IMG/VR virus record: IMGVR_UViG_3300031776_000001
Coordinates: 1 to 54,058 of that record
Length of the DNA stretch: 54,058 bases
DNA from: a virus
Lineage: Duplodnaviria > Caudoviricetes
Strand: one strand, 5' to 3'
The notes beneath the pieces are model-generated. The model did no database searches. It was not told where the DNA came from and saw only the letters and a program-made list of their open reading frames with translations. The first letter of the stretch is position 1, and every line of letters starts with the position of its first letter. Below, in pieces: positions 4,281 to 46,265 of this stretch. A program made the position numbers and the translations under genes.

Positions 4281-4309
4281 CGGATGGCTCCTTTCTCGAC
4301 TACCAGCGG

Positions 4310-4381
4310 CAGCCGGGGCAGGATTCGAACCTGCGTGGCAGGGGTCAACCACCCCGTGCTCTACCCTTGAGCTACCCGGCT
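4310..4381 (-). tRNA. tRNA-Asn(GTT)-like gene with atypical anticodon loop
   Basis: Minus strand reads AGCCGGG TA GCTC-AAGGGTA-GAGC A CGGGG-TGGTTGA-CCCCT GCCAC GCAGG-TTCGAAT-CCTGC CCCGGCT G. Acceptor, D and T arms are canonical and the discriminator is G; G33/G37 are atypical; no encoded CCA. Confidence 0.75.
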
Positions 4382-17580: not shown

Positions 17581-18306
17581 GTGACCATCTCCTTCGCCGA
17601 GGCCCGGGAGCAAGCAATGCGTGAAGGGGAGTTCGCGGGCTGGATCTTGCCCATCCTGGTGGCGATGGAGGAGCAGGCCACACGACAGCGAGGCTTGTGG
17701 GTCTCGCCCTCGCAGGCCCTGGTGTGCCCACGGCTGCGGGTGTTGCAACTCGAGAAACCCTACTACGTGAGGCCAGAGTGGGTGTGGGCAGCCATGAATG
17801 GCACAGCCATCCACCACTGGATGGCCGAGGTGGGTGCACTCGAGGGTTGTTTCCACGAGTTGCCGCTGGCAGCTAGGCTCACGGTGCGTCTCGGAAAGCG
17901 CGACGTCGAGTTCCCAGTGCAAGGCACGGCGGACCTCTACATCCCGGCGGAGGCGAGGCTGGTGGATGTCAAGACGACGTCGCGGCGCCTGTGGGGATCC
18001 TCCTCGAAGGTGCCGAGGGCGCTGGAGCATGAGTTCCAGGTGAACATCTACGCCTGGCTCCTCCGCGAGAGCGGTTACCCAGTGGAGCGGGCTGAGTTGT
18101 GGTATGCTCAACCAGGACTGCGGAACGGGAGAGTGGAGCGCCAGCTGGTGGTGGTGGAGCTCCTGCCCCATGAGGAGGTGGGGGAGCTCCTGGTGGCGAT
18201 AGCGGAGCCGTTAGTGCGCTACCTCGAGGAGGGGAGGCTGCCAGAGTGCCGGTGCCAGGAGCGGCCATTCATCTATCCGGATCTCTGCAGGGAGGTGGAA
18301 CCATGA
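17581..18306 (+). CDS. Cas4/RecB-like PD-(D/E)XK exonuclease
   Basis: SPSQ..CPR, GTAIH, GTAD, DVKT, QVNIY, and C-terminal CRC...C (possible Fe-S cluster ligands). Confidence 0.82.
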   Translation: MTISFAEAREQAMREGEFAGWILPILVAMEEQATRQRGLWVSPSQALVCPRLRVLQLEKPYYVRPEWVWAAMNGTAIHHWMAEVGALEGCFHELPLAARLTVRLGKRDVEFPVQGTADLYIPAEARLVDVKTTSRRLWGSSSKVPRALEHEFQVNIYAWLLRESGYPVERAELWYAQPGLRNGRVERQLVVVELLPHEEVGELLVAIAEPLVRYLEEGRLPECRCQERPFIYPDLCREVEP

Positions 18307-18638
18307 AGCGGTCACGCAAGACCAGGTACCGAGAGGCCGAGAACCTGCTGCCAGAGGAGGCTAAGAGCCTGGTGATGGAGTGGCGGCGACAGCAGAACCT
18401 GGTGGTGAGTGGGCTCCTCGAGTGGTGGCGGAAGGCGAGTCCAGCCGAGAAGCAGGGGCTGCCCTGGTGCTGGGAGTCCGATGAGTCAGGGAACCCGACG
18501 CTCCTTAGGAGCCGCGATGGCGGTGTGCTGCTCAGGGTAGCAAGGATCCCCTCGGGAGAGCCGGTGCTGGTCTGGGCGCTGTCAGCAGGAACCCTGAGCC
18601 AGCTCCAGGAGACGTTGCGGGAGCTCCGCGGGGGCTGA
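18303..18638 (+). CDS. Hypothetical protein (111 aa)
   Basis: GGAGGT RBS; ATGA overlap with the upstream gene. Confidence 0.7.
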   Translation: MKRSRKTRYREAENLLPEEAKSLVMEWRRQQNLVVSGLLEWWRKASPAEKQGLPWCWESDESGNPTLLRSRDGGVLLRVARIPSGEPVLVWALSAGTLSQLQETLRELRGG

Positions 18639-20456
18639 TGCTACCTCCATGCCCCAGTGCCATGTTGGCAAGGGTAGGGGTGGTGGGGTATGTGGGTAGT
18701 GGGGATTGGCCCCGGTTCTGGAGCTGGCCCAGGAAAGGAGCGGGGGTGGGGGTAGGGGTGCGCAGACGGCGCTGGCCTCGCCTGCGGCGCTGGAAGTGGT
18801 GCCTCAGACGGCGGCGGCCTCGTCCATCCCCTATGGCAAGCGGCGGCTGGTTGAGTGTGGCCCTGCACCGCGGGGCTGGTTGTTAATGGTGGTGCTGCCC
18901 TCGCATGGCGAGGCTGGTGGTGAGGGGGAGATGGGTGGAGGGGGAGGGGTGTGGTGGTTGGAGGGGAAGGTGGAGCAACGGCGGCAGGCGAGGTGTTGGA
19001 CTGGGGAGCGGCGTGTGGGAGGGTGGTGGCAGCGGGCCATTGGGTGGCAGCCATTGGATGGCCCGTTTGGTGGTAGAGGATGGATGGGCTGTGCCTGGGT
19101 GGGCCTGCATAGTGGAGCTACTCGGTTGGCCAGCCAGGTTGGCTGGCAGAGTTGGTTGGTGGGGTGGCAGGCGTCTGTTGTAGCTGCAACAGCGGATCCC
19201 TCATGGCTTGCAGGAACCGGCTCAGACCGACGAGGAGGCTCGTAGAGGGGCCTGTGGTAGAGGGGCTGATAGAGGTACTGGGGGTGGTCCCGAAAGGGCC
19301 TCAGCGGCCAACGTGGTGAGCCTCAGGGCATGTTCTGGGCACGGTTGGGATCCCTGCAGCAGGCTGCAGGGAGTGGCAGCTCGCTGCTGGTGCTCTTTTG
19401 CGCATAAGTGCTCTTATACGCTGGAGGCAGGTTCCGCCAAGCTCCACACTGCTAGGAGCGGCAGGGGGAGGTGACATGGGCGGAAGGATCTACCCAATTA
19501 CCGGTAGCTCCTGAGAGCCGAGGTGGGGCAAGGTGGGCAGCGTGGCGGGAGTGCACCATGGTGGACCAGCCTGGTGCGAGGGAGGCAGCGACCTCGACGC
19601 AGGCACTGGCGGCAGCAGCAACCCTCGAGGAGTCGGGTGCCAGCGTGACTCAATGGACCTAGCACAGTACCGGGAGTTCATGAGAACCAACCTGCCGGGC
19701 CCTCGAGGAGGGCACCGCCACTGCGCCAGGAGCAGACTGCCACCACGACAGCACTGGTGGCGCCGACTCAACACGCGGCCTGATGCCAGCTGCACCTGCG
19801 CACCCTGTCCACCGGTGGAGCGGCAGGCAGGCAGCTAGAGCACTGGCAACCCCTTGGCCCCTGATCTGCCTCCGCTCCAGCACCACCAGCGCTCACTACC
19901 ACCCACACCAGCCAGTCGCAGCAGTTGGATCAGCTACCAAAGGTTTGGGAGCAGTCACCTGCACCAGGTACCCCTACCCAGTACCCGTTGTGCTGGGATA
20001 CCCTACCCCAGTACCCGCTGCAGGTAGGGGCATACGGTACCGGGGTATCAGCACAAACGCAGCGCCAGGGCGCGCAAAGTTGTGACAAGGGGGCAGGGGT
20101 AGGGAGTTTGGGGGTACTGGTAGGGGGTATGGGCGCAATCCCTTGCCCACTGCCCTGTTGCCCCACCGCCAATCCTCACCCACTGCCCCGCAACCCGCAG
20201 TAGCCCGCAGCAACCTCGTCTCCTGCCCCTGCGTCCCCTCAATCCCACTCCATCCTGCCCTGGCCACCTGCCCTCGCCACCTACCCCGGCTGTGTCCACC
20301 GTCACCACCTCCCACCTCCCCTACCTGTGCCTCAAGGTCACACACCATTCTCGTACCGGCCCCGCAGAGCTTTGCTTTGGGTCCCTCTGAGATCCGCGTC
20401 GCGACGCCAATGTTGGAGGCAAGAAACGAATCCGAAAAATTCCCCCTCGAAACCCC

Positions 20457-20485
20457 TTGACAACCGCTCCCACAGGTGCTATAAC
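20457..20485 (+). promoter_or_regulatory. Strong early sigma70 promoter
   Basis: TTGACA-17 nt-TATAAC with extended -10 TG and an upstream A-rich tract (AAGAAACGAATCCGAAAAATT). Confidence 0.85.
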
Positions 20486-20648
20486 GGTACCAGAAGACAA
20501 GAGCGGCACCACCCGGCCCCCCCCCCCTCGAGACGAGGGGCCAGGAACAGGAGCCGCACCGGCATCCACCAGCAAGCCACGTCACCCGGTGCCGGGCACC
20601 TTGACAAGCGAGACGGTCACCTCTGGGTGCTGTGACAGCACTCGGAGC

Positions 20649-20766
20649 CTCGAGAACCGAAGCTGGCCAGCGTGGCGTCGAGGGAGCCACCAGCCAGCTT
20701 CGTGGGAGCAGGAGTTGAACCGGGGTGCGACTCCCCGGGCTCCCAGAGGTAGGTACGGTTCTCGAG
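20649..20766 (+). ncRNA. Structured leader with tRNA-minihelix-like element
   Basis: Closing stem CTCGAGAACCG/CGGTTCTCGAG; inner AAGCTGGC/GCCAGCTT arm; GGGAGC..CCGGGG-TGCGACT-CCCCGG-GCTCCC. Confidence 0.5.
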
Positions 20767-20784
20767 TCCGTAAGGAGGGACACC

Positions 20785-21105
20785 ATGGTCAACCTCATGC
20801 AGCAGGCGGAAATGATCCGCGAGCTCCGCCGCAACCGCGCCATCCAGATGTTCTACCAGGAGGTGGCAGCCCTCGCTCTGGCCGATGCCATCAGCCAGTG
20901 CTGGTTCCAGCTCACCGGTGAGCGCCTGGATGAGACCGACGCACTCCACCTGGCCAAGGTCGCGATGGAGCACCTCCCTGACCAGTCCTGGATCACCATC
21001 GGCAGCTGGTTCCGGAGCCAGAATGGCAGCCACCGCGACCTCCTCAACCACGAGGCCGACGCGGAGATCCTGGTCTACCGCCTCCGCGACCTCGGCTACC
21101 TCTGA
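20785..21105 (+). CDS. Early hypothetical protein (106 aa)
   Basis: TAAGGAGG RBS; first gene after the early promoter. Confidence 0.8.
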   Translation: MVNLMQQAEMIRELRRNRAIQMFYQEVAALALADAISQCWFQLTGERLDETDALHLAKVAMEHLPDQSWITIGSWFRSQNGSHRDLLNHEADAEILVYRLRDLGYL

Positions 21106-21120
21106 TGCCCACTCCCTTCC

Positions 21121-21214
21121 CTCCCTTCCCCAGCAGCTGCGGGTGTCACCCAGCACCCGCAGCGTCGAATGGGACCTCTTGCCAGAGAGGTGCCAGGGAA
21201 ACTGGAAAGGAGGG
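21121..21214 (+). ncRNA. Three-way-junction RNA motif, copy A
   Basis: CCTTCC-CCAG-CA-[P2]-GTCGAA-[P3]-GGGAAA-CTGG-AAAGGAGG. Confidence 0.8.
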
Positions 21215-21219
21215 AACCG

Positions 21220-21699
21220 ATGGTGCAGATCCATGGTCTCGAAATCGAAATCTTCGACGGCGCAGAAGAGAAGGGGGCCAAGATGGCAGGACACCAGGTC
21301 AGCGCAGTGATCCGGCAAGTGGTGGGCAAGCCCCAGCCCCAGCGCAAGGCGGTGGCTGAGTTCGGTGCCGCCAGCGACGTCACCGCTCTCCGCGACATGA
21401 TTGCAGCCTGGCTGGAGCAGCTCCAGAGCGACCTCTATGCACCCCTGGCTCAGCAGACAGGCAAGATGCCCCGCTGGTTCGCTGAGCATGATGCTCAGCA
21501 GATGCTCGACGGGAAGTGGGTTCAGATCGGGTGGCTCAACTCCCGTTCCCACACCATCACCACCCAAGCTCAGGGGCGCGTCATCGACTGGATCCAGGGA
21601 GCCATCGTCTTCTATGACCCGGAGCAGGACACCATCTACTACCCCATCTTCCTGGTCGCCGAGATCCGCCGTCGGCGCGCTCCCCGCGGAGCCCGCTAG
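21220..21699 (+). CDS. Early hypothetical protein (159 aa)
   Basis: AAAGGAGG RBS lies within motif copy A. Confidence 0.8.
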   Translation: MVQIHGLEIEIFDGAEEKGAKMAGHQVSAVIRQVVGKPQPQRKAVAEFGAASDVTALRDMIAAWLEQLQSDLYAPLAQQTGKMPRWFAEHDAQQMLDGKWVQIGWLNSRSHTITTQAQGRVIDWIQGAIVFYDPEQDTIYYPIFLVAEIRRRRAPRGAR

Positions 21700-21706
21700 C
21701 CCAAGA

Positions 21707-21798
21707 CTCCTTCCCCAGCGGCTGGGGGCAGCCAATCGGCTCCCCCAGCGTCGAATGGTGTGGCAACAGGGCCACATCAGGGAGACTGGAAAGGAGGG
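21707..21798 (+). ncRNA. Three-way-junction RNA motif, copy B
   Basis: CCTTCC-CCAG-CG-[P2]-GTCGAA-[P3]-GGGAGA-CTGG-AAAGGAGG. Confidence 0.8.
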
Positions 21799-21803
21799 CA
21801 ACC

Positions 21804-22184
21804 ATGACTCGACGATTGCGCCAGCAAGCAGCGCTGGAGCGCTCACTCGGCACCATGATCACCCAGGCACTCTGGGGCAAGCCCACGACACGACGCAACG
21901 CCGACTCCCGCAAGCGAGTGGCCAAGATCATCCAGGCAGAGCTGGTTGCGCAAGCTCTCCCCATCGTGGGGAGCCAGGAGCTGGCTCAGCAGGTTGCCTA
22001 CCTCGCTTGCCAAGATCCCGCCGCGATGGTGCAGGTCTTCCTCGGCGATGCCGACACCATCAAGCGGCTGGCAGAGAAGGCTGCCACCATGCCGGAGCCT
22101 CCCCAGTCACCGACTCTCGAGGAGCTGATCCCGGTAGCCGAAGAGGCGATGCAGATAGTGCGGAGTCTCTTGGCAACACGATGA
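21804..22184 (+). CDS. Early hypothetical protein (126 aa)
   Basis: AAAGGAGG RBS lies within motif copy B. Confidence 0.8.
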   Translation: MTRRLRQQAALERSLGTMITQALWGKPTTRRNADSRKRVAKIIQAELVAQALPIVGSQELAQQVAYLACQDPAAMVQVFLGDADTIKRLAEKAATMPEPPQSPTLEELIPVAEEAMQIVRSLLATR

Positions 22185-22197
22185 AAGGAGGGCACCC

Positions 22198-22602
22198 ATG
22201 AAGCGGCTCTACAGCCTCGAGAAGGAACTGGCCAAGATCCTGGATCCCCGGCCACCGCGTCCACGCCGCCAGCCACTCTCCCCTGAGGCTATCCGCTCCA
22301 TCGCAGTCCAGGGCTGCCTCGAGTACCTGGCTGACATGACAGAGTCCCGCGAGGGCGCTGAGGCCCAGCGGCTCCTGGCTGAACTCGAGGCGCTCCCCGT
22401 GAACCGACTCGGCGACTCCATCCTCACCTCGATGGAGAACCTGCTGATCAACAAGCACCGCCGCGGCGGCCTGATCTTCCAGACACTGCGCCAGCGCGCA
22501 CCGGAGCGCCTGGGCCGCGGCTATGCCATGTACCGGCTCCTCCAAGATCCGGACCTGGTGGTGGAGGAACTCTTCTGGGACTACCTCGACTACCAGCCCT
22601 GA
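22198..22602 (+). CDS. Early hypothetical protein (134 aa)
   Basis: AAAGGAGG RBS. Confidence 0.8.
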   Translation: MKRLYSLEKELAKILDPRPPRPRRQPLSPEAIRSIAVQGCLEYLADMTESREGAEAQRLLAELEALPVNRLGDSILTSMENLLINKHRRGGLIFQTLRQRAPERLGRGYAMYRLLQDPDLVVEELFWDYLDYQP

Positions 22603-22617
22603 CGCTTACCCATTCCC

Positions 22618-22706
22618 CTCCCCTTCCCCAGCGGCGGTGGGTGCCCCAGTGGGCACCTGCCGCGCCGACTGGCACCAGTGCGGTGCCAGGGAGACTGGAA
22701 AGGGGG
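22618..22706 (+). ncRNA. Three-way-junction RNA motif, copy C
   Basis: CCTTCC-CCAG-CG-[P2]-GCCGAC-[P3]-GGGAGA-CTGG-AAAGGGGG. Confidence 0.8.
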
Positions 22707-22768
22707 TCACGCGGATACCACTGGCTGTCCACCAGCGCAGGCGCGGCGAGTCACTGAAAGGAGGTCAC

Positions 22769-23011
22769 ATGAGCATCGATCCCGTTGCCCTCATCGAGTT
22801 CCTCGAGGATGCCCTGAAGGGTGTCCATGAGGAGTCAGCCCGCCACTGGATCCGCGCCGCCATCCAGCACCTGGCGGAGGGATCCCAGCCACGGTGGGTG
22901 GCAGCCGCCGCTGCCTGCCTCCACGAGGCAGCGCGCTGCACCACCCACCCCAGCTACCGGAACTGGTTGCGGTCCATGGCAGCTCATCTCGAGAAGGAGG
23001 TCTGGTCATGA
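22769..23011 (+). CDS. Early hypothetical protein (80 aa)
   Basis: AAAGGAGGT RBS before ATG 22769. Confidence 0.78.
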   Translation: MSIDPVALIEFLEDALKGVHEESARHWIRAAIQHLAEGSQPRWVAAAAACLHEAARCTTHPSYRNWLRSMAAHLEKEVWS

Positions 23012-23430
23012 AGGATCCACGCTACACGATTGATCGCCTCTCCCGCAACGACAAGGTGGTGGTGAAGGGCCTCGACTCCCTGGCCCTGCACCTGGCTGAC
23101 CTCGAGATCCTGATGAAGGACCTCGAGCTCCCCCTGGCTCAGGAGTACGGCTCCCAGACGGCGTACCTCCTCAACTACCTGCGCCTGGCACTGGAGGCCG
23201 AGGTCCAGGCAGCCAAGATCCTCGAGAAGGTCTCCTCGGCTGCCGACACCCCCGACACCCGGATTGCCCTCCAGGCCCTCCGCCGCTGCTCCGAGGCCAT
23301 CCGGATCCTGGCCTACCGGCGCCTGGAGTGCCTGTGGGAGGTCCTGGCGCTCCGCGAGGGCAGCCGCGACGAAGCAGATCTCGCCAAGCAGCTCATCGAC
23401 GAGTTGCACCTGAGCCCGGCGATTCACTGA
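23008..23430 (+). CDS. Early hypothetical protein (140 aa)
   Basis: AAGGAGGT RBS; ATGA overlap. Confidence 0.78.
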   Translation: MKDPRYTIDRLSRNDKVVVKGLDSLALHLADLEILMKDLELPLAQEYGSQTAYLLNYLRLALEAEVQAAKILEKVSSAADTPDTRIALQALRRCSEAIRILAYRRLECLWEVLALREGSRDEADLAKQLIDELHLSPAIH

Positions 23431-23448
23431 ACCGAAAGGAGGCATGTC

Positions 23449-23736
23449 ATGCAGCCCTGGGACGTCTTCGAGGTAGCCCGCCGCATCGTGAAGCGCCACC
23501 TCGACACCGATGACCTCGACTTCGTCGCAGCTCAACTCATCGCCGAGTATGGTGCCCAGGTCCTCGACGAGAGCCAGGACTGGGGCCCACGAGTCCTGGC
23601 AGCCCAGGAAGAGGTGATCCGCTACGCCCAGAGCCACGCCTACTACGCTCCCTGGGACCCCTATGACGAGGCGGACTGGGCCTGCCTCGAGGAGTGGATC
23701 CTCGAGACGCTCCCGAAGGGAGGTGAAAGCCGCTAA
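23449..23736 (+). CDS. Early acidic hypothetical protein (95 aa)
   Basis: AAAGGAGG RBS; D/E-rich. Confidence 0.78.
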   Translation: MQPWDVFEVARRIVKRHLDTDDLDFVAAQLIAEYGAQVLDESQDWGPRVLAAQEEVIRYAQSHAYYAPWDPYDEADWACLEEWILETLPKGGESR

Positions 23737-23833
23737 GCGTCTCACCCCTGCACTGGCCCCGGTAGGGCACCCACCCTACCGGGGCCCGCCACCCCGGCGC
23801 TGAGGCCAAACTGATCACGAAAGGAGGACCGTC

Positions 23834-24325
23834 ATGACTGCCAAGGAACTGGCTCAAAGCATCCGCGAGCTCCACCACCTGGTGCCGAAGCTCCTGGTGG
23901 GGGAGATGACGCCAGAGGAGTTCTGGAGCCGAGTCGAGGCCTGGTTTGAGCAGGTGTCAGCCGAGTCCAGTGCCCTCGCCGCCTACCTGCCTGGTGAGGG
24001 CACCATCCAGCAGGCTCTGGCTGCCCTGCGCGAGGGGATTCGCTGGGATCTGGAGCTCAACCGCACCCTGTTTCCAGTGCTCCAGGGGCGAGAGTCCGAG
24101 GACATCCTCATCCACCACGCCGTCTCCATCTTCGGGATCATGAGTGCTGAGATCCTGGACCGCCTCTTCAGCCGCCTCGCGGTGTGGGCAGAGCTCTTGG
24201 GCATCCTCGATGGCTCCATCGAGTTCCCTGAGGAGACCTACCTCACCTACCGGGAGCTCCGGGCCATGATCCAGGCCCACCCCTTTGCCGAGTACAGCTT
24301 CGACGTCGAGGACCTCGATGCCTGA
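23834..24325 (+). CDS. Early acidic hypothetical protein (163 aa)
   Basis: AAAGGAGG RBS. Confidence 0.78.
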   Translation: MTAKELAQSIRELHHLVPKLLVGEMTPEEFWSRVEAWFEQVSAESSALAAYLPGEGTIQQALAALREGIRWDLELNRTLFPVLQGRESEDILIHHAVSIFGIMSAEILDRLFSRLAVWAELLGILDGSIEFPEETYLTYRELRAMIQAHPFAEYSFDVEDLDA

Positions 24326-24339
24326 GGAGGGTGAGCACC

Positions 24340-24708
24340 ATGAAGACAGTGGCCTTTCTCGAGAGCCTGGATGTCGCCTTCCGCGCCGAACCCGTCGCCA
24401 TCACCACCTACCACCAGGGTGAGGGCACCACGGCGCGCTACCGCTTCCTGGTGGAGGCCCGGCCCGCCAGCCACCACGGCAACGGCATCCGTGGGGTGCT
24501 CTCCATGGTGGCCCGGCGCGAGGCGGGTGTCTCCTTTGCCTGGGAAGAGGTGCGCTGGACCGATGGAGCCCCACTCTCCGAGCCCGAGTCGCAACTGGCA
24601 CTGGATCTCCTGCTCCGCCACGTGGCGGCCCAGCTCCTCTACCAGCACGCCTACTTCGCCTTGAAGGCTGGTGACCTCCAGGTCATGGAGGAGCGCCTCG
24701 ATGCCTGA
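24340..24708 (+). CDS. Early hypothetical protein (122 aa)
   Basis: GAGGAGG RBS with spacing that fits ATG 24340. Confidence 0.75.
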   Translation: MKTVAFLESLDVAFRAEPVAITTYHQGEGTTARYRFLVEARPASHHGNGIRGVLSMVARREAGVSFAWEEVRWTDGAPLSEPESQLALDLLLRHVAAQLLYQHAYFALKAGDLQVMEERLDA

Positions 24709-39653: not shown

Positions 39654-42600
39654 TTACCGCTGTGTCGCTTGCCAGTAGGCCTGCGGAGTGCGTGGTACCC
39701 CGCGAGGCTGCTTCTGCACCCACTCGAAGTAGCGGCGGAGCTCCGGATCCTGCTGGATCAGCTCCTCCTGCTTGCCCGGCGGCAGGAACAAGAGCGCTTG
39801 CACCTTGGCCACCAGGTTCTCCGGCCCCGGCTTCCAGGAGAGCGGGACGTAGGCAGCACCGATCCAGCCCTGCTTGGCCAGCTGGCTCATGGTGCCGCGG
39901 GGGAGCTCACTGGAGGCGGGTAGCTGAGCCCTGGCCTCGCGGATCTGCCGCTCCGTCTCAGGGAGGAACTTCACCGGTACCGGGAGCGTCATGCCCACCA
40001 CCTCCTGCGCCAAGAGCTGGCGCCGGACATCTTGCCAGGCGCGCTGGAAGATGGGGCTCTCGGGATCATTGAGCGCCTTGACATACTCTGGATCCGCTGC
40101 CCTCCCGGTCTCCTCCACCGACAGCTCCAGGATCCGCTTCTTCACCAGGTAGTCGGTGTAGCCAGATCCGGTGAGCGTCTCAGGCTGGCCACGGATCCGC
40201 CGGATCCCCTCGCGGAACGGCTGCTCCACATCCAGGCCCGTCGCCTGCGCCAGGAGACCAGAATGGCGCAGCACCCGCATCGGCTCCCAGTCCTCACCCA
40301 GCACTCCCGCCACTCCCAGCGGGATCTCAGCCCAGGGAGCCAGGCCCAACCCTACCCGCGAGGCCTGGACCTGGAGCCGCGCCAGGAGCGGGGCGTCATC
40401 TGGGATGTAGCGGTACTTGAGCTGGTCAGCGATGGAGAGCGCCACTATCGGGTTGGCATAGGCAGTGCCGGGGCCGAAGAGCCAGCCCAGGAAGGGGACC
40501 GGCATGGTATCGATGAAGCGCCGCGGCAAGCCCAGCCGCTCCCGCTCATCCTCAGCGATCTGGTGGTAGCTCTCCCAGGCCCGCAGGAGCCAGGGATGCT
40601 GCCCCAGCGTCTCGAGGTAGAAGGGGATGTTCCTGGTCGCCCAGAAGTGGAAGGGTGCCCAGGCCCGGATACCCAACCACCTCTCGATGTTCTTCTCGTC
40701 GCCGTAGTCGAAGAAGAGGCGACGGGCTAGCTCTTCACCGCGCCGCGAGGCCTCCACCTGCACCCGGCTCCAGGCGGCGGAGAGTTCCGCGGCCTGCTCT
40801 GGGGTGCCACCCACCCGGCGCACTGCCTCTTCCAGCTGCTGCACCGAGAAGACCACCCCGCGCTCCGTGGCATCCAGCATCCGGATGAGCCGGTTACCAT
40901 TGCGAGTCCCCAGTACCTGGCGCACCAGCCCATCGAAGGCAGGTCTGGCCTCCCGCAGCTGGCGCAGCGTCTCGGTGATCCAGGCCCCGCTCCGGAAACT
41001 GGATTCCACTGCCTGGCCCACCCGGCGGTTGAACTGCACCAGCTTCTCGGCACCAGCCCCCAGGCGGCGCGAGAGTCGCGAGAGGAGTGTCCCCAGCGCG
41101 GTCTCGGCCTGTGGAGAGGCAAACTCCTCCCACACCGTCGTCTGGGGCCTCCAGAGCACCGACTCCGGAATCGGGATGCCCAGGCGCTCCGCGAGGGTGA
41201 AGGCACTGCGTCCTATCACAGGGTTGACGCCATAGAGCACCGCCTTCACCGTCGAGTCCAGGATGTTCTGGAGGTGATAGCGTGGCGTCAGGAGTGCCTG
41301 CTCCCGCCAGGCCCGCAGCGGCAGTGCCTGGGCCAGGCGGCTGAGAGCCCGCACCGCTACTGGATCCTTCTCCACCCCCAGGCGCTTGGCCATCTCGTCA
41401 GCATAGGCCTCGACGAGTGCCTCCCGCCGCGTCTCTGTCACAGTCTTCCCCAGCACTGCCTCCGCCGCCTCGTCAGGATCCAGGCCGATGAGCTGGAGGA
41501 AGTTGTCGATGACGCGGCGCTGGTTCTCGTCGGCAAAGCGCCTAGCCTCCACCACGTCGCGGATGGTGGCTGTGGGAGCTAAGAGATCCGGTGCCAGTGG
41601 CTCCCGCTCCACCAGGTGCTGGCTGATCTCGCGGAGCGCCTGCCGCGCCGCTTGGAAGCTCTCCTCGAGCTGCTGCACCCGCGGCAGTGCCCCCGCCTCG
41701 CGGAGCACCCGCACCATCTGATCCGGCAGGACACTTCCATACCAGCTCCGCGCTAGCTCCCCTTGCACCTGACCACGCAGGCGCCGAGTGCGTGGGAGCA
41801 GGCGGTCCACCAGGCGCTGGGCTACCGGGAAGCGGACTCCGAAGGCAGCCCAGGTATCCCCGACCTCGCGGAGGAGGGCTGCCGCGTGGTTGCGCAGCTC
41901 CTGTGGGGAGCTGGCCCGCAGCGCTTGCACCACCCGTGGCCGCAAGTGCGGGAGCCACAATGAGACCGCTGCCAGCGGCTCATTCTCGTTGCCGAAGGTC
42001 CTGCCCAGGAGCTCGGCCAGCTGGTCCAGGTTCTGCTGCGGCAGCCGCTCCTCGGCAGCGATTTGCGAGAGCACCTCGCGGAGATCCTCCACTGCCAGAG
42101 GACGCATCGTCGGACCTGGCTTGCCGCGGGTGAGCCGGGCTGCCTCACCAGCAGCCTCCTCCACCACCTCCTGGGCGAGTTGGCCACCGAAGTGCGCCTG
42201 GACTACCAGACCGGCATCGGGCCCCAGGACCCCTGCCTTCTGGAGCAGCCACTCCAGGTGCCCGAGTTCTCGCTGGGAGAGGCTGCGCAGGCGCCCATCG
42301 GATCCCACACGCCCTAGGATCTGCTCCACCCCGGGAGCCCAGTCTTGCCCCGACAAGAGGTAGCGCACCGCCTTGTCGAAGAGTGCTCCCTTGAGACGCG
42401 GGTTGAAGTCGAGTGGACCCTTGCCCTGGTCATCGAAGAGGGGGCGACCCGCCACCTCGGGGTTGGGATCACCCGCCTCGAAAGCCAGGCGACGGCTCTT
42501 GCGGATCTCCCTCAGAGTCCGTCGGACCTCCTCCTCAGTGCGTGGACGGACCTCCTCCCAGAGCAGTGAGCGCTGCCCGGCACTCTCCAGATCCCTGGCG

Positions 42601-45600
42601 GCTGCCGTCTCCACTTGGCGCAGCTGCTCCGGGGTGGCGGGAACCAGCCTGCCAGGCTCCACCGCGAAGTCGCGTGGCCAGGTGCCGTCGTCCAGTCGCA
42701 CCGAGAACTTGACCACGCCCTCGGGTGTATCGACCTCGGTGAAGAAGAGGCGCTCCGGACCTTGAATGGAGACCTCTCCCGTCGCCTGGACCACGTGCCC
42801 GCGATGCGGACCACTGGTGTAGACCAGGCCCTTGCCGCCTACCAGCACTGACTCCTGCTCATACTTGGCCCCGAGTTCCAGGGCATCCCGTTCCCGCATA
42901 CCGGGAACCAGGAATGACTCCTCGACGATCCCCTCCTCCGAGTAGCGTCCTCGCACCGGAATCGGCTGGTAGCCACGGCTTTGGAGATCTGCCAGGAGCT
43001 CCTGGCGCCGTCGCACCAGCTCCTCCTCCGGGAGCCCCAGCTTGTCGGAGGTCAGGACCACGTAGTCGCCGCTCTCCAGGATCTCCCGCAGCCGCTTGGG
43101 TACCGGAGCAGCGGGCAGTGCCAGGTCCTGCAACAGTTCCCGCGCTACCTCAGGTGTCAGCGCCTCGCGGGGCAGCCCTCGCCGGTAGGCCACTTCAGCC
43201 ACGCGGCGGTAGTTCTCGAGAGCCTGGCGCAAGGGTTCTGGGACGTCACCAGTGGCCAGGAGCCTCTCGACACCGCGGGCAAAGGCTTCTTCAGCAGGAG
43301 CTGCCTCCTCGGCGAAGATCCCCGCCCCACGCGCCACGTAGCGCATGAGGTGGGCCAACTCATGCGGCAGCGTGGTGATGTCGGCACGCGGTGTGAGGTA
43401 GATCACTGGGCCACCCGGCCCGAGTTCCAGGTACCCCCGCACCCGGCGCAGCCCCTGGTAGAGCCGCGGATAGAGCACATCGATGATGGCGGCTGCCTCG
43501 TCGCTCCGCAGGATGCCGCGCTGGGCCACCTCGGAGAGCAACTCGCGGATCTGCGGATCCCGCTTGGCGATGTCGCTGGGCATCCAGAGGTCCCAGTCGG
43601 CCAAGATCTTGCGGATCCCGCTGGCATCACCCTGGAGCAGCGCCTGCACCACCTCACCAAGACCGCGCTTCACCCCCTCTCCCTCGATCCGGATGATCTG
43701 CCAGAGCCCGGCTTGCAGCGCCGCCAGGTTGGGATAGAGCCTAGACAGCTCCGGATCGCGCTGCACCCGCCGCCAGAGTTCCCGCAGGAGCACCCGCTCC
43801 GCCACTGCCCTGGCCGGTCCCGCTGCCTTCTCAGCCTGGGCCACCGCCTCCTGGTAGGGGATTCCTGAGAGCAGAGCTATATCGCGGCGGATCCAGCGGT
43901 CCAGTGCAGCGCCATTGACCTCCCGCTCAGCCCGCTTGATGTACTGGAGCACCTGCTCCTCCGGTACCCCAGCTGCCCGCATGGCCACTGCCTGGTCGAA
44001 GATGTCAGCGTAGCGGTCCACCACGTAGGTGTAGTTCATCAGCTTGTCGAGGTAGGGTGACGGCTGCCCCGGCTTGGGCACCAGGCGCCCCAGATCCGGT
44101 ACCCGCCTCCAGAGTGGCTCGGCCAAGTTGGTCACATCGGCGAAGGCGCTATCCGGCAAGAGGCCAGGGTATCCCAAGAGCAGGAAGCGCCGGAACTCGT
44201 CGAATCCCGCCAGCAACATCCCTGAGGGATGGCGCCCCTCGGCCAGCTGTCGCGTCCATCCTGCCACGGCACGGAGGTTCAGGAGCGGGTTGGCTCCCTT
44301 GCCACCCGCCGCCCAGGCCGCCAGGGCAAAGTCGCGGATATCCCGGTTCTCGAGGCGATGCCGCACCAGCTTGGCCGCCTCTTCAGGCACCAGGTACCCT
44401 GCCTCGTCCACCCTGGTGAGGTCGATGCCCAGCCGCCGCGCCAGGGTGGGATCCACCCGGTCTACCCTGGTCAGCCCCAGCGTCCTGGCAGTGTCCAGGA
44501 GCGGGTTCACCGGCTGCTCAGGGATGACGAACTTGGTCACCCCCGTCAGGCGACTCACAGAGCGCTCCCGCGGTGGGCGATAGGGTACCTCCCCGATACG
44601 GCTCATCGCCTCGCGGAACAGTGGCTCCGGTATCGCCTCGGTGGGGCGGAAGCGGTACCCCATCTCCTTGAGGGTCTCGTTCAGGCGCTTGGCCTCCGCC
44701 TCGGAGAGGTAGACAGCGCGCTGATAGGCTGGATCCACGTTGCGGGGATCCACCAGCCGCTGGATGGCCTCCTCCGGGAGTCCCTGCCCACGGGGGAAGA
44801 GCCGCGAGAACCAGGCACCGGCATCCCGATACCAGGCTCCCGCCTCTTTGGCCATCGGCTCTCCCATGGCCTGGGAACCGGCCCGCAGCCGCCGCTGCCA
44901 GCGCTCCACCGCATCCGGTGGGTGGCTGAGAAACTTCAGCGCCGAGGCCACCAGTTCCTCGTCGGGGCTCTCCGGTACATAGCGTGGATCCTCCAGCATC
45001 TTGCGGGTGACCTCTTCCACGGTTTGGAAGAGCTTGCTGGCCCCACCGGGGTCGTCCTCGAAGGAGGCGCGGATCCGCATCATCCCATAGACCTCGTCGA
45101 GGTCGCGGAAGCGCCCCGGGTTCTGGGCATAGGTAGCCACGGCTACCGCGTCGAGGATCCGGTGCAGCGTCTGGCGGGTGGGTGCTGGGAACTCCCGCGT
45201 CAGCAAGGCATCGTCCAGCTCCAGGTGGACGCGCATTCTTTCGGAGGGGCGCACCAGGATCCGGTTCCCCTCGCGGACCTCCTGAAGGAGACCGCGCTCC
45301 AGGAGCTCCCGTTTCACCTCGATGAGCGGCTCGCGGGCCTCAGGGCGCAAGGGTGCCTCCCGCGAGAGCGCATCCCAGGCCCGCGTCAGGCTCACACTGT
45401 CCACCCCGCGGATGACGTCACGTACCTGCTCCCGCGGTTGCCCGATGAGCAAGTCTGCCCACCCCTGGCGCGCCAGTCGCACTACTTCTCCCTCGGGAGC
45501 CAGAGGGTTCTCGACACCGCGGCTCTCCGCCTCCTCCAGGGCGCGGCGGAAGAGTTGGACGTTCTGGCGGAGCTCCGCCTGCGGCGACTTCTGGAAGAGT

Positions 45601-46232
45601 GGCTTGCCAGTGATCCGCTCCAGTGCCCGGGCACCCCGGCGCAGCCCAGCCAGCGGCACCGTCACCGGGAGCGCCATGATGCGCCCCAGGAGCTCATCGG
45701 TAGCCGCCACCACGTCGTAGGTCTTGGCCAGTGCCGGAGAGGTCTCGAGGAGGCGCACCACCTTGGGAATCTTGCCCACCTTGCCGACCAGGCCCACGCC
45801 CACCAGGTTCAGGGGATCGAAGAGGATCTCCGAGCCCAGCTTGAGCCAGGGGTGCCCTTCCATGGCGAGGTTCCAGGCCTCGGTGAAGCTCTCCGCCTCC
45901 CGTACCCTGGGATCCTCCGAGATCTGCTTGACGTACCACCCCAGCGCTGGGCGCGTCACGAATTTGTTGCCGACATCGAGGAGCCACCCGGCTGCCGACA
46001 GTGCTTGCCGGAGCGGCCCCTTACCCGGTTGCTCAGCCTGCGCCGGGCTGGGTGTCACCGGTGGCGTGGTGCCCACCGGTGGCATCCGCCCTGGTGCCGC
46101 AGTCACCGGAGCCACGAAACTGGGCAGTGTCGGCTGCGGCGCCGGTCCCGTTGGGCGGCTACCCGGTAGTGCAGCACCAGTGCGAACCTCCGACAGTGCC
46201 TCCTCGAAGAGGCGACGTTCCAGTTCCCCCAT
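39654..46232 (-). CDS. Giant internal virion / DNA-ejection polyvalent protein (~2,192 aa)
   Basis: DPLNLVG ejection-protein motif; internal HELAH zincin, SAM-lyase-like and glycosylase-like segments; GAAGGAGG RBS before ATG 46232. Confidence 0.8.
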   Translation of the reverse strand: MGELERRLFEEALSEVRTGAALPGSRPTGPAPQPTLPSFVAPVTAAPGRMPPVGTTPPVTPSPAQAEQPGKGPLRQALSAAGWLLDVGNKFVTRPALGWYVKQISEDPRVREAESFTEAWNLAMEGHPWLKLGSEILFDPLNLVGVGLVGKVGKIPKVVRLLETSPALAKTYDVVAATDELLGRIMALPVTVPLAGLRRGARALERITGKPLFQKSPQAELRQNVQLFRRALEEAESRGVENPLAPEGEVVRLARQGWADLLIGQPREQVRDVIRGVDSVSLTRAWDALSREAPLRPEAREPLIEVKRELLERGLLQEVREGNRILVRPSERMRVHLELDDALLTREFPAPTRQTLHRILDAVAVATYAQNPGRFRDLDEVYGMMRIRASFEDDPGGASKLFQTVEEVTRKMLEDPRYVPESPDEELVASALKFLSHPPDAVERWQRRLRAGSQAMGEPMAKEAGAWYRDAGAWFSRLFPRGQGLPEEAIQRLVDPRNVDPAYQRAVYLSEAEAKRLNETLKEMGYRFRPTEAIPEPLFREAMSRIGEVPYRPPRERSVSRLTGVTKFVIPEQPVNPLLDTARTLGLTRVDRVDPTLARRLGIDLTRVDEAGYLVPEEAAKLVRHRLENRDIRDFALAAWAAGGKGANPLLNLRAVAGWTRQLAEGRHPSGMLLAGFDEFRRFLLLGYPGLLPDSAFADVTNLAEPLWRRVPDLGRLVPKPGQPSPYLDKLMNYTYVVDRYADIFDQAVAMRAAGVPEEQVLQYIKRAEREVNGAALDRWIRRDIALLSGIPYQEAVAQAEKAAGPARAVAERVLLRELWRRVQRDPELSRLYPNLAALQAGLWQIIRIEGEGVKRGLGEVVQALLQGDASGIRKILADWDLWMPSDIAKRDPQIRELLSEVAQRGILRSDEAAAIIDVLYPRLYQGLRRVRGYLELGPGGPVIYLTPRADITTLPHELAHLMRYVARGAGIFAEEAAPAEEAFARGVERLLATGDVPEPLRQALENYRRVAEVAYRRGLPREALTPEVARELLQDLALPAAPVPKRLREILESGDYVVLTSDKLGLPEEELVRRRQELLADLQSRGYQPIPVRGRYSEEGIVEESFLVPGMRERDALELGAKYEQESVLVGGKGLVYTSGPHRGHVVQATGEVSIQGPERLFFTEVDTPEGVVKFSVRLDDGTWPRDFAVEPGRLVPATPEQLRQVETAAARDLESAGQRSLLWEEVRPRTEEEVRRTLREIRKSRRLAFEAGDPNPEVAGRPLFDDQGKGPLDFNPRLKGALFDKAVRYLLSGQDWAPGVEQILGRVGSDGRLRSLSQRELGHLEWLLQKAGVLGPDAGLVVQAHFGGQLAQEVVEEAAGEAARLTRGKPGPTMRPLAVEDLREVLSQIAAEERLPQQNLDQLAELLGRTFGNENEPLAAVSLWLPHLRPRVVQALRASSPQELRNHAAALLREVGDTWAAFGVRFPVAQRLVDRLLPRTRRLRGQVQGELARSWYGSVLPDQMVRVLREAGALPRVQQLEESFQAARQALREISQHLVEREPLAPDLLAPTATIRDVVEARRFADENQRRVIDNFLQLIGLDPDEAAEAVLGKTVTETRREALVEAYADEMAKRLGVEKDPVAVRALSRLAQALPLRAWREQALLTPRYHLQNILDSTVKAVLYGVNPVIGRSAFTLAERLGIPIPESVLWRPQTTVWEEFASPQAETALGTLLSRLSRRLGAGAEKLVQFNRRVGQAVESSFRSGAWITETLRQLREARPAFDGLVRQVLGTRNGNRLIRMLDATERGVVFSVQQLEEAVRRVGGTPEQAAELSAAWSRVQVEASRRGEELARRLFFDYGDEKNIERWLGIRAWAPFHFWATRNIPFYLETLGQHPWLLRAWESYHQIAEDERERLGLPRRFIDTMPVPFLGWLFGPGTAYANPIVALSIADQLKYRYIPDDAPLLARLQVQASRVGLGLAPWAEIPLGVAGVLGEDWEPMRVLRHSGLLAQATGLDVEQPFREGIRRIRGQPETLTGSGYTDYLVKKRILELSVEETGRAADPEYVKALNDPESPIFQRAWQDVRRQLLAQEVVGMTLPVPVKFLPETERQIREARAQLPASSELPRGTMSQLAKQGWIGAAYVPLSWKPGPENLVAKVQALLFLPPGKQEELIQQDPELRRYFEWVQKQPRGVPRTPQAYWQATQR

Positions 46233-46265
46233 CGCCCCTCCTTCCGTTCTCATGATCCCTCGGCA

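Follow-up and report, generated by a model that had tools for sequence, protein, structure and literature searches.

The record IMGVR_UViG_3300031776_000001 is a tailed-phage genome contained in a single contig of 54,058 bp, the whole of which was analyzed and is referred to here as the window. On its plus strand, the window carries three copies of an element of approximately 90 nt, with cores at 21128-21213 (element A), 21713-21797 (element B), and 22626-22706 (element C). The element represents a new RNA family, although its general type, that of structured leaders or intercistronic elements in phage mRNA, is familiar. Its fold is made up of a closing helix (a variable basal stem, an invariant CC bulge, and the pairing of CCAG with CUGG, P1), two hairpins of free sequence (P2 and P3), and a nearly invariant junction formed by the strands CR, GYCGAM, and GGGARA. 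As to its function, the reading that we favor, tentatively and at somewhat less than even chances, is that of a cis-acting leader gating the translation of each cassette gene.

Architecture and covariation of the element

Alignment of the three copies, together with a coordinate script, gave the order of the parts as a pyrimidine-rich basal strand, CC, CCAG, C-R, P2, GYCGAM, P3, GGGARA, CUGG, and AAAGGRGG. The consensus CC-CCAG-CR-[P2]-GYCGAM-[P3]-GGGARA-CUGG is common to A, B, and C, and P2 and P3 pair in each copy despite their differing sequences. In these copies, the P2 hairpin spans 28-30 nt and the P3 hairpin 19-26 nt, the only irregularities noted being one G.G mismatch in P3 of A and two G.U pairs in P2 of C; family-wide, the stems measure 10-13 bp (P2) and 6-10 bp (P3). 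A gapped pattern of the shared blocks matched the 54,058-bp window three times, always on the plus strand, and was found in 0 of 100 dinucleotide shuffles. Compared with shuffled sequences, fold stability gave z scores of -4.9 (A), -4.0 (B), and -2.7 (C). Further matches to the 3′ block alone, with up to three mismatches, occurred in the window at chance level only, and there was no fourth copy in the genome record, where the best other covariance-model match scored 15 bits (E value 0.2). The first-pass annotation of this DNA had reported three copies sharing these blocks at these places; the pattern counts bear this out, and the P2, P3, and basal-stem sequences quoted there for each copy agree with the sequence, the alignment, and the coordinate script.

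To describe the family as a whole, we used a model-based alignment of 21 matches representing 20 distinct copies, which was fitted to the model, a procedure that favors pairing. Standard pairs filled 94.5% of cells in the 20 distinct copies versus 69.2% in column shuffles, none of 500 shuffles reaching the observed value, and when the pairing partner was slid by one to three columns, 38-54% of cells paired. Double-sided changes were seen in 21 of the 27 pairs, including every pair of P2 and P3. The raw sequences agreed with this and contained 17 distinct P2 and 19 distinct P3 hairpins, all of them clean stems. The basal stem covaries too and reads CCGU(G)/(C)ACGG in two copies, L149 and L150. 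The junction, by comparison, varied at only four positions across the 20 copies (R18, Y51, M55, and R86) and was retained in the seven copies that were reached by the covariance model and not by the exact pattern. The earlier proposal of conserved junction bases surrounded by covarying P2, P3, and basal stems thus holds over the 20 distinct copies.

Because the basal stem of L149 and L150 is CCGU(G)/(C)ACGG, the register of the closing helix is fixed and the CC preceding CCAG is a conserved bulge. These two C's are invariant and count as part of the core, being nothing but a bulge in L149 and L150. An alternative GUC/GAC pairing around P3, which appeared in some minimum-energy folds, was rejected as it is broken by the variants with C at Y51 and A at R86. 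Additional pairs between R18 and Y51, or between Y51 and G83 and between C52 and G82, fit the data, with little variation at these positions; the latter two could extend P3 and leave GAM as a bulge. A tertiary contact between the CC bulge and the GGG run may also exist. In one copy (L118c, L118:737-831, minus strand), CCCA replaces CCAG in the 5′ strand of P1 and the rest is intact; this may be a decaying copy. A close relative of it at L124:758-851 keeps the CCAG consensus.

Several observations place the fold at the RNA level. P2 and P3 contain 19 G.U pairs when folded in the sense direction versus 6 in the antisense direction, and the more stable hairpin was the sense one in 24 and the antisense one in 13 of 40 comparisons. 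Every copy is co-oriented with its flanking genes, and a six-frame comparison with relatives placed the genes around the elements on the plus strand. Given the G.U pairs and the gene orientation, we interpret the element as a sense-strand RNA element, in agreement with the three-way junction of RNA drawn in the first-pass annotation, and the simplest reading of its setting would be an RNA element inside a polycistronic mRNA.

Distribution in phages and host genomes

Homologues of the element were found in four IMG/VR phage contigs, eight metagenome contigs, and five bacterial genomes. A loose pattern scan of IMG/VR gave 113 loci, nearly all due to chance, from which a hairpin filter on both variable segments singled out L068 (two copies) and L029; the stems of these loci are wholly different from those of the window. 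A second pattern left GYCGAM unspecified. All four loci that it matched in IMG/VR were true, its 17 metagenome matches consisted of 8 true and 9 chance loci, and its 12 genome matches of 2 true loci, in Thermomicrobium sp. and Bacterium HR28, and 10 chance loci. GYCGA reappeared between two hairpins, in the right place, in every true locus obtained in this way; chance loci had no GYCGA or, at L119 and L144, had GYCGA without the two hairpins. Loci L152-L155 and most of L001-L113 were discarded as chance pattern matches.

The covariance model R1 added three copies that fail the exact patterns (L115b, L118c, and L117a) and, in the further genomes G016, G065, and G118, another four. Samples of 151 genomes were drawn around the Thermomicrobium genome at three levels: five genomes had matches in the class-level sample, the same five in the order-level sample, and in the phylum-level sample only the Thermomicrobium genome itself, plus one weak match, in G173 (26.8 bits), which was rejected, as it is without the junction. 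In whole host genomes, the covariance model matched only these copies and nothing else, and the host-genome copies adjoin homologues of window phage genes. A nuclease alignment identified just four IMG/VR relatives; in all four, the element follows the nuclease gene at a distance of 1.3-3 kb. No similar DNA was found in the INPHARED phage records. The distribution is narrow, comprising one clade of phages and prophages of Thermomicrobium-type bacteria. The homologue search by covariance model that had been suggested for this motif recovered related phages and prophages in which the stems differ and the junction is the same.

Comparison with known RNA families

We searched Rfam 15, which holds 4227 models, including hammerhead, twister, twister-sister, pistol, hatchet, HDV-like, ZTP, glutamine, c4, pRNA, and 5S. 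At the gathering score, the whole window returned a tRNA only. Relaxing the threshold to E ≤ 10 over 20900-23000 gave eight chance-level matches, with no ribozyme or riboswitch among them and none lying across an element junction; two fell within single hairpins (16.8 bits, E 6.2, in P2 of B; 16.5 bits, E 8.6, on the minus strand in C). Five homologous loci searched at E ≤ 1 gave one 21-bit match, which is under its cut-off. The initial suggestion that the motif is new and lacks the cores of hammerhead, twister, pistol, HDV, and ZTP is consistent with these searches, and the junction CR/GYCGAM/GGGARA also differs from the hammerhead core. A literature search, with supplementary files outside its scope, found no description of the motif. 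Mimicry of host 5S rRNA loop A, to which the junction bears some likeness, was rejected since the 5S genes of the five host genomes have unrelated loop-A strands.

Position relative to genes and translation

The element is always intercistronic, and the preceding stop codon lies 8-24 nt before CCCCAG. A start codon follows 12-19 nt after CUGG in 14 of 22 copies and, measured from the 3′ end of the model, within 5 nt in 11-12 of 21 copies. In most copies, the Shine-Dalgarno (SD) sequence lies within the closing helix. In A and B, AAAGGAGG occupies the 3′ strand of this helix and precedes the ATG start codons at 21220 and 21804 by 7 and 6 nt, respectively, whereas the next start after C is the ATG at 22769, 60 nt beyond the element. 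The first-pass annotation had described the SD as buried in A and B and had found no start directly after C, and both statements were correct.

On this basis, we propose that each copy may act as a portable leader that sets ribosome access to the following gene. The folded junction would lock the closing helix, in which, in most copies, an anti-SD-like CCUCC tract would be paired with the SD or the helix would end 3-4 nt from it, and initiation would be held down until the closing helix opens. Because the closing helix pairs the anti-SD-like tract with the SD in most copies, the folded junction should restrict initiation. The conserved 3′ block could double as a joint for the gain and loss of accessory-gene cassettes. 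Phages whose proteins share only 30-70% identity have the same invariant junction, and for this reason it is probably set by something that does not co-evolve with the phage, be it a ligand of low molecular weight, part of the host machinery (for example, the ribosome or an RNase), or the RNA's own tertiary fold.

One parallel for such a leader is provided by purine-type translational riboswitches, in which a three-way-junction aptamer controls the SD through its P1 helix. The element likewise consists of P1 and two hairpins around a conserved junction, with a P1 3′ strand that carries or abuts the ribosome-binding site. It differs in having no conserved loops for a loop-loop contact, in occurring as three copies in one operon, and in preceding unrelated genes that do not form one pathway. 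The downstream proteins are mostly unrelated and without family, save for one of the Cas_VVA1548 family, and the SD, as a possible expression platform, lies in the closing helix in most copies and outside it in L149, L150, and the copies with a spacer.

A number of observations weigh against the leader as we have described it. SD burial is not universal, as the SD of L149 and L150 is unpaired and located downstream of the closing helix, and 8 of 22 copies, C included, have a spacer of 25-100 nt with an SD of its own; hence, SD occlusion is not the sole or universal function of the element. The 4-bp CCAG/CUGG helix never varies and so shows no covariation, being defined by complementarity alone, and its probability in nearest-neighbor folding ranged from 0.01 to 0.85 among the copies. 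Some 25 invariant junction bases would be superfluous in an ordinary thermometer or coupling hairpin, and three riboswitch-like sensors within 1.6 kb of one operon, ahead of unrelated genes, would be odd for a metabolite sensor.

Proposed cassette exchange at the conserved 3′ block

The block consisting of element A and the gene at 21220-21699 is absent from the matching place in the related locus L115 and, as it is missing there, it behaves as a cassette. In L134a, the 5′ flank, P2, and P3 of L118a are fused to the 3′ flank of L118c, and in L130 and L132, the same parts of L118a are fused to the 3′ flank of L118b. The joints of these chimeras lie inside the conserved 3′ block, and one or two gene cassettes are deleted. 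Since L134a, L130, and L132 fuse L118 copies at this block, we infer that cassettes between elements are lost by recombination in it.

Alternative functions

The main rival of a translational leader is a self-cleaving ribozyme, or a specific RNase site, that would punctuate the polycistronic mRNA, which the sequence makes possible and which we hold to be doubtful. Cleavage in or near the junction would separate the cistrons, and the downstream message would begin with a stable three-way junction with an insulating and stabilizing effect, a role akin to that of the RNase III sites among the early genes of T7. In its architecture, with three helices of free sequence around a compact, purine-rich, and nearly invariant core and no conserved loops, the element resembles small self-cleaving ribozymes. 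From what is generally known of the type III hammerhead, it has a similar topology: of the three helices, only the closing one is open, the remaining two being capped, purine-rich GA-containing strands line the junction, with a GA step into one hairpin and a G-A step out that recall tandem G.A pairs, and several copies occur in phage DNA for both. In addition, the sequence of the junction-proximal CCAG/CUGG helix does not change, which hints at a role beyond pairing, several copies per phage stand in strictly intercistronic positions before unrelated genes, and the core is retained where the SD lies outside the element. However, no Rfam ribozyme family matched, even at E ≤ 10, the junction strands are not those of the hammerhead core, the element has an invariant CC bulge 4 bp below the junction, and a translational leader would better account for the tight, constant spacing to the start codon and for the SD-bearing helix. 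Circularly permuted forms, with P3 or P2 open, gave at least 119 and 66 pattern matches in IMG/VR; none among those listed combined a hairpin with flank pairing, and both stems of the best one were no longer than 4 bp. As for processing sites, RNase III sites lie between the early genes of phage T7 and 5′ stabilizer stem-loops are found in the Bacillus phage SP82. These are also repeated, structured, intercistronic elements of one phage operon, conserved in shape and variable in sequence, but each of them is one long hairpin, interrupted by an internal loop and poorly conserved in sequence, whereas the element is branched with an invariant junction.

We give a new ribozyme or sensor class a small but genuine chance. 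In its full form, the proposal would be that of a catalytic or ligand-sensing RNA class in thermophilic Thermomicrobium-type phages, a hammerhead-like three-way junction with an invariant core of its own that would cut or gate the mRNA before each accessory cassette and serve as a recombination joint, in short a ribozyme insulator plus cassette linker; to this we likewise assign a low probability.

The element might instead be an operator for a trans-acting RNA-binding protein of phage or host origin that co-regulates all cassette genes, an arrangement for which T4 RegA is a precedent. By analogy this is conceivable, and we consider it distinctly improbable. In its favor, a single shared motif precedes many unrelated accessory genes, one of which encodes a Cas_VVA1548-family protein, a hint of anti-defense cargo. 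In PMC13551039, Aca1 and Aca2 are reported to bind RNA motifs in the 5′ untranslated regions of phage anti-CRISPR operons and to repress translation. Those motifs resemble the element in being structured, phage-specific, and placed just before the start codons of accessory or anti-defense genes; they differ in being single short hairpins at the transcript start, with a co-encoded helix-turn-helix protein (PMC13551039). The element is a 90-nt intercistronic three-way junction, and no co-occurring regulator was found: the product of the gene preceding A, gpX, whose gene alone is a regular neighbor of the first element, was present in 0 of 5 other element-bearing records, which are incomplete and were searched with a single-sequence query, so gpX was rejected as an obligate partner.

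The junction could also be read as a k-junction, which would again suit a protein operator. As defined in PMC10573300, a k-junction, known from the TPP riboswitch and DUF-3268, has a 3-nt bulge, tandem trans sugar-Hoogsteen G.A and A.G pairs, and a third helix on the non-bulged strand. In such a reading, P2 would be the C helix, GYC the bulge, G-A would face G-A, P3 would be the NC helix, and P1 the third helix; all four G/A bases concerned are invariant in the copies. Nonetheless, it requires an extra layer of one or two nucleotides (M55 and G82/G83) between the G.A pairs and P3, unlike the k-junction of that description. Neither the phage record (0 of 1) nor the five host genomes (0 of 5) contain an L7Ae-family gene (PF01248; controls matched 7 of 14), and PMC10573300 states that the DUF-3268 k-junction showed no significant folding upon L7Ae addition and suggests that its third helix blocks L7Ae. 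Furthermore, if the partner were encoded by the phage, protein and site should co-evolve, but the junction does not vary among distant relatives.

At the DNA level, a fold of single-stranded DNA might serve cassette recombination, in analogy with integron attC sites, or priming and replication, the RNA fold being incidental. The joints of deletion and insertion variants found in nature fall exactly within the conserved 3′ block, the element is where many metagenome contigs are broken, the replication module is upstream of the elements and a GC-skew switch at ~19.5-20 kb is approximately 1-3 kb away from them, and single-stranded DNA also tolerates G.T pairs. We nevertheless judge such a role very unlikely: the element is always co-oriented with transcription and, in most copies, fused to a ribosome-binding site at a fixed distance from the start codon, no recombinase family was found among the neighboring open reading frames (ORFs) scanned, which are part of the genome's ORFs, and ordinary homologous recombination equally explains crossovers in an identical block of 15-25 nt. 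The least likely explanation of all is that the copies have no specific function and are selfish or neutral intergenic repeats, or generic stabilizing hairpins or terminators spread by duplication. The narrow distribution in one phage clade, the several copies per genome, and the association with recombination would fit this. Duplicated repeats, however, keep their overall similarity, whereas here the stems have been swapped by compensatory changes and approximately 25 junction bases are fixed, the copy with the mutated P1, L118c, being the exception; moreover, a terminator-like scan of 18000-24500 listed no site within the three elements, and no U run follows P3 in A, B, or C.

If the junction is a catalytic or sensing core, the element would represent a new ribozyme or riboswitch class, and, given its origin in thermophiles, such a class should combine stability with small size and lend itself to structural work. 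If the element is no more than a plain leader, it would still mean that a phage equips every exchangeable accessory gene with a standard RNA module of its own, the natural equivalent of the insulator parts built into synthetic genetic circuits. This is relevant to how phages shuffle and express genes for anti-defense or host takeover. The general importance of the element is limited by its narrow distribution.

Genomic context

The coordinates of the elements, their parts, and the neighboring genes are collected in Table 1.

Table 1. Elements A, B, and C and adjacent features of the window.
Feature	Coordinates	Strand	Remarks
Element A, whole covariance-model match	21118..21216	+	82.1 bits, E 3.5e-18
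A, anti-SD strand	~21121-21127		
A, CC	21128-21129		
A, P1 5′ strand, CCAG	21130-21133		
A, J12, CA	21134-21135		
A, P2 hairpin	21136-21163		
A, J23, GUCGAA	21164-21169		
A, P3 hairpin	21170-21195		
A, J31, GGGAAA	21196-21201		
A, P1 3′ strand, CUGG	21202-21205		
A, AAAGGAGG	21206-21213		
Element B, covariance-model match	21703..21800	+	80.6 bits
B, basal CUCCUU	21707-21712		
B, CC	21713-21714		
B, CCAG	21715-21718		
B, CG	21719-21720		
B, P2	21721-21749		
B, GUCGAA	21750-21755		
B, P3	21756-21779		
B, GGGAGA	21780-21785		
B, CUGG	21786-21789		
B, AAAGGAGG	21790-21797		
Element C, covariance-model match	22616..22709	+	82.0 bits
C, basal CCCCUU	22620-22625		
C, CC	22626-22627		
C, CCAG	22628-22631		
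C, CG	22632-22633		
C, P2	22634-22663		
C, GCCGAC	22664-22669		
C, P3	22670-22688		
C, GGGAGA	22689-22694		
C, CUGG	22695-22698		
C, G-rich AAAGGGGG	22699-22706		does not serve as SD in C
Gene for gpX	20725..21105	+	126 amino acids, no family; stop codon 23 nt before CCCCAG of A
Gene after A	21220..21699	+	159 amino acids, no family match
Gene after B	21804..22184	+	126 amino acids, no family match; 41% identical to gene after L115b
Gene with ordinary unstructured ribosome-binding site	22198..22602	+	134 amino acids; no element in front; stop 24 nt before CCCCAG of C
Spacer between C and next start	22710..22768	+	59 nt; carries SD of next gene, GAAAGGAGG
Gene after C	22769..23011	+	80 amino acids; 66% identical to gene after L068b, itself with spacer

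The plus strand of the window encodes a DnaB, PolA, primase, and PD-(D/E)XK nuclease module, and the minus strand encodes a terminase, lysins, and a virion-type protein of 2199 amino acids (39654-46253), whose sole Pfam match is DUF3293. The elements follow this replication module at a distance of 3-4 kb and are surrounded by genes without a family match. A homologue of gpX precedes the first element in L115, L118, L124, L132, L134, and L148, which makes seven loci with the window. The C terminus of gpX reads AEILVYRLxDxGYL, and its Pfam search gave only a weak TetR match (E 0.005) below the cut-off.

The proteins encoded downstream of the elements mostly have no mutual similarity, and some are orthologous between phages. 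Searches of the flanking small proteins against PHROGs and Pfam returned nothing, and a protein atlas gave no usable match. The sole downstream family match is that of the gene following the element copy in L117 (L117:110-571, plus strand), which belongs to the Cas_VVA1548 family (PF09652, E 1e-16), and the cassettes may carry defense-related cargo. No sigma-70-like promoters were found in 18000-24500. After the related copies L118c, L124b, and L134a (in L118, L124, and L134), the interval up to the next gene contains a long, perfect hairpin of ~45 nt.

The ends of six contigs (L117, L118, L120, L124, L128, and L130) lie in or within ~100 nt of an element, as would be expected if assemblies break at a repeated joint that varies between strains. 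One DNA run and no RNA run was found to contain 20700-23100; in the contigs of this DNA run, unitigs were broken near 21062/21114 and within C, and no joint linked one element to another. The GC skew changes from about +0.2 to -0.1 at ~19500-20000, where the cumulative skew peaks, and plus-strand genes continue to ~26.2 kb; the stretch at 18.3-20.7 kb has few ORFs conserved in relatives. This region may mark the boundary of a module, an origin, or a terminus. The contig ends (1-3674 and 50385-54058) form a 3,674-bp repeat with 58 mismatches, which is not an exact terminal repeat and may reflect a strain mix or an assembled concatemer junction. The only RNA gene detected in the genome with Rfam or ARAGORN is a tRNA-Asn (GTT) at 4308-4381 on the minus strand.

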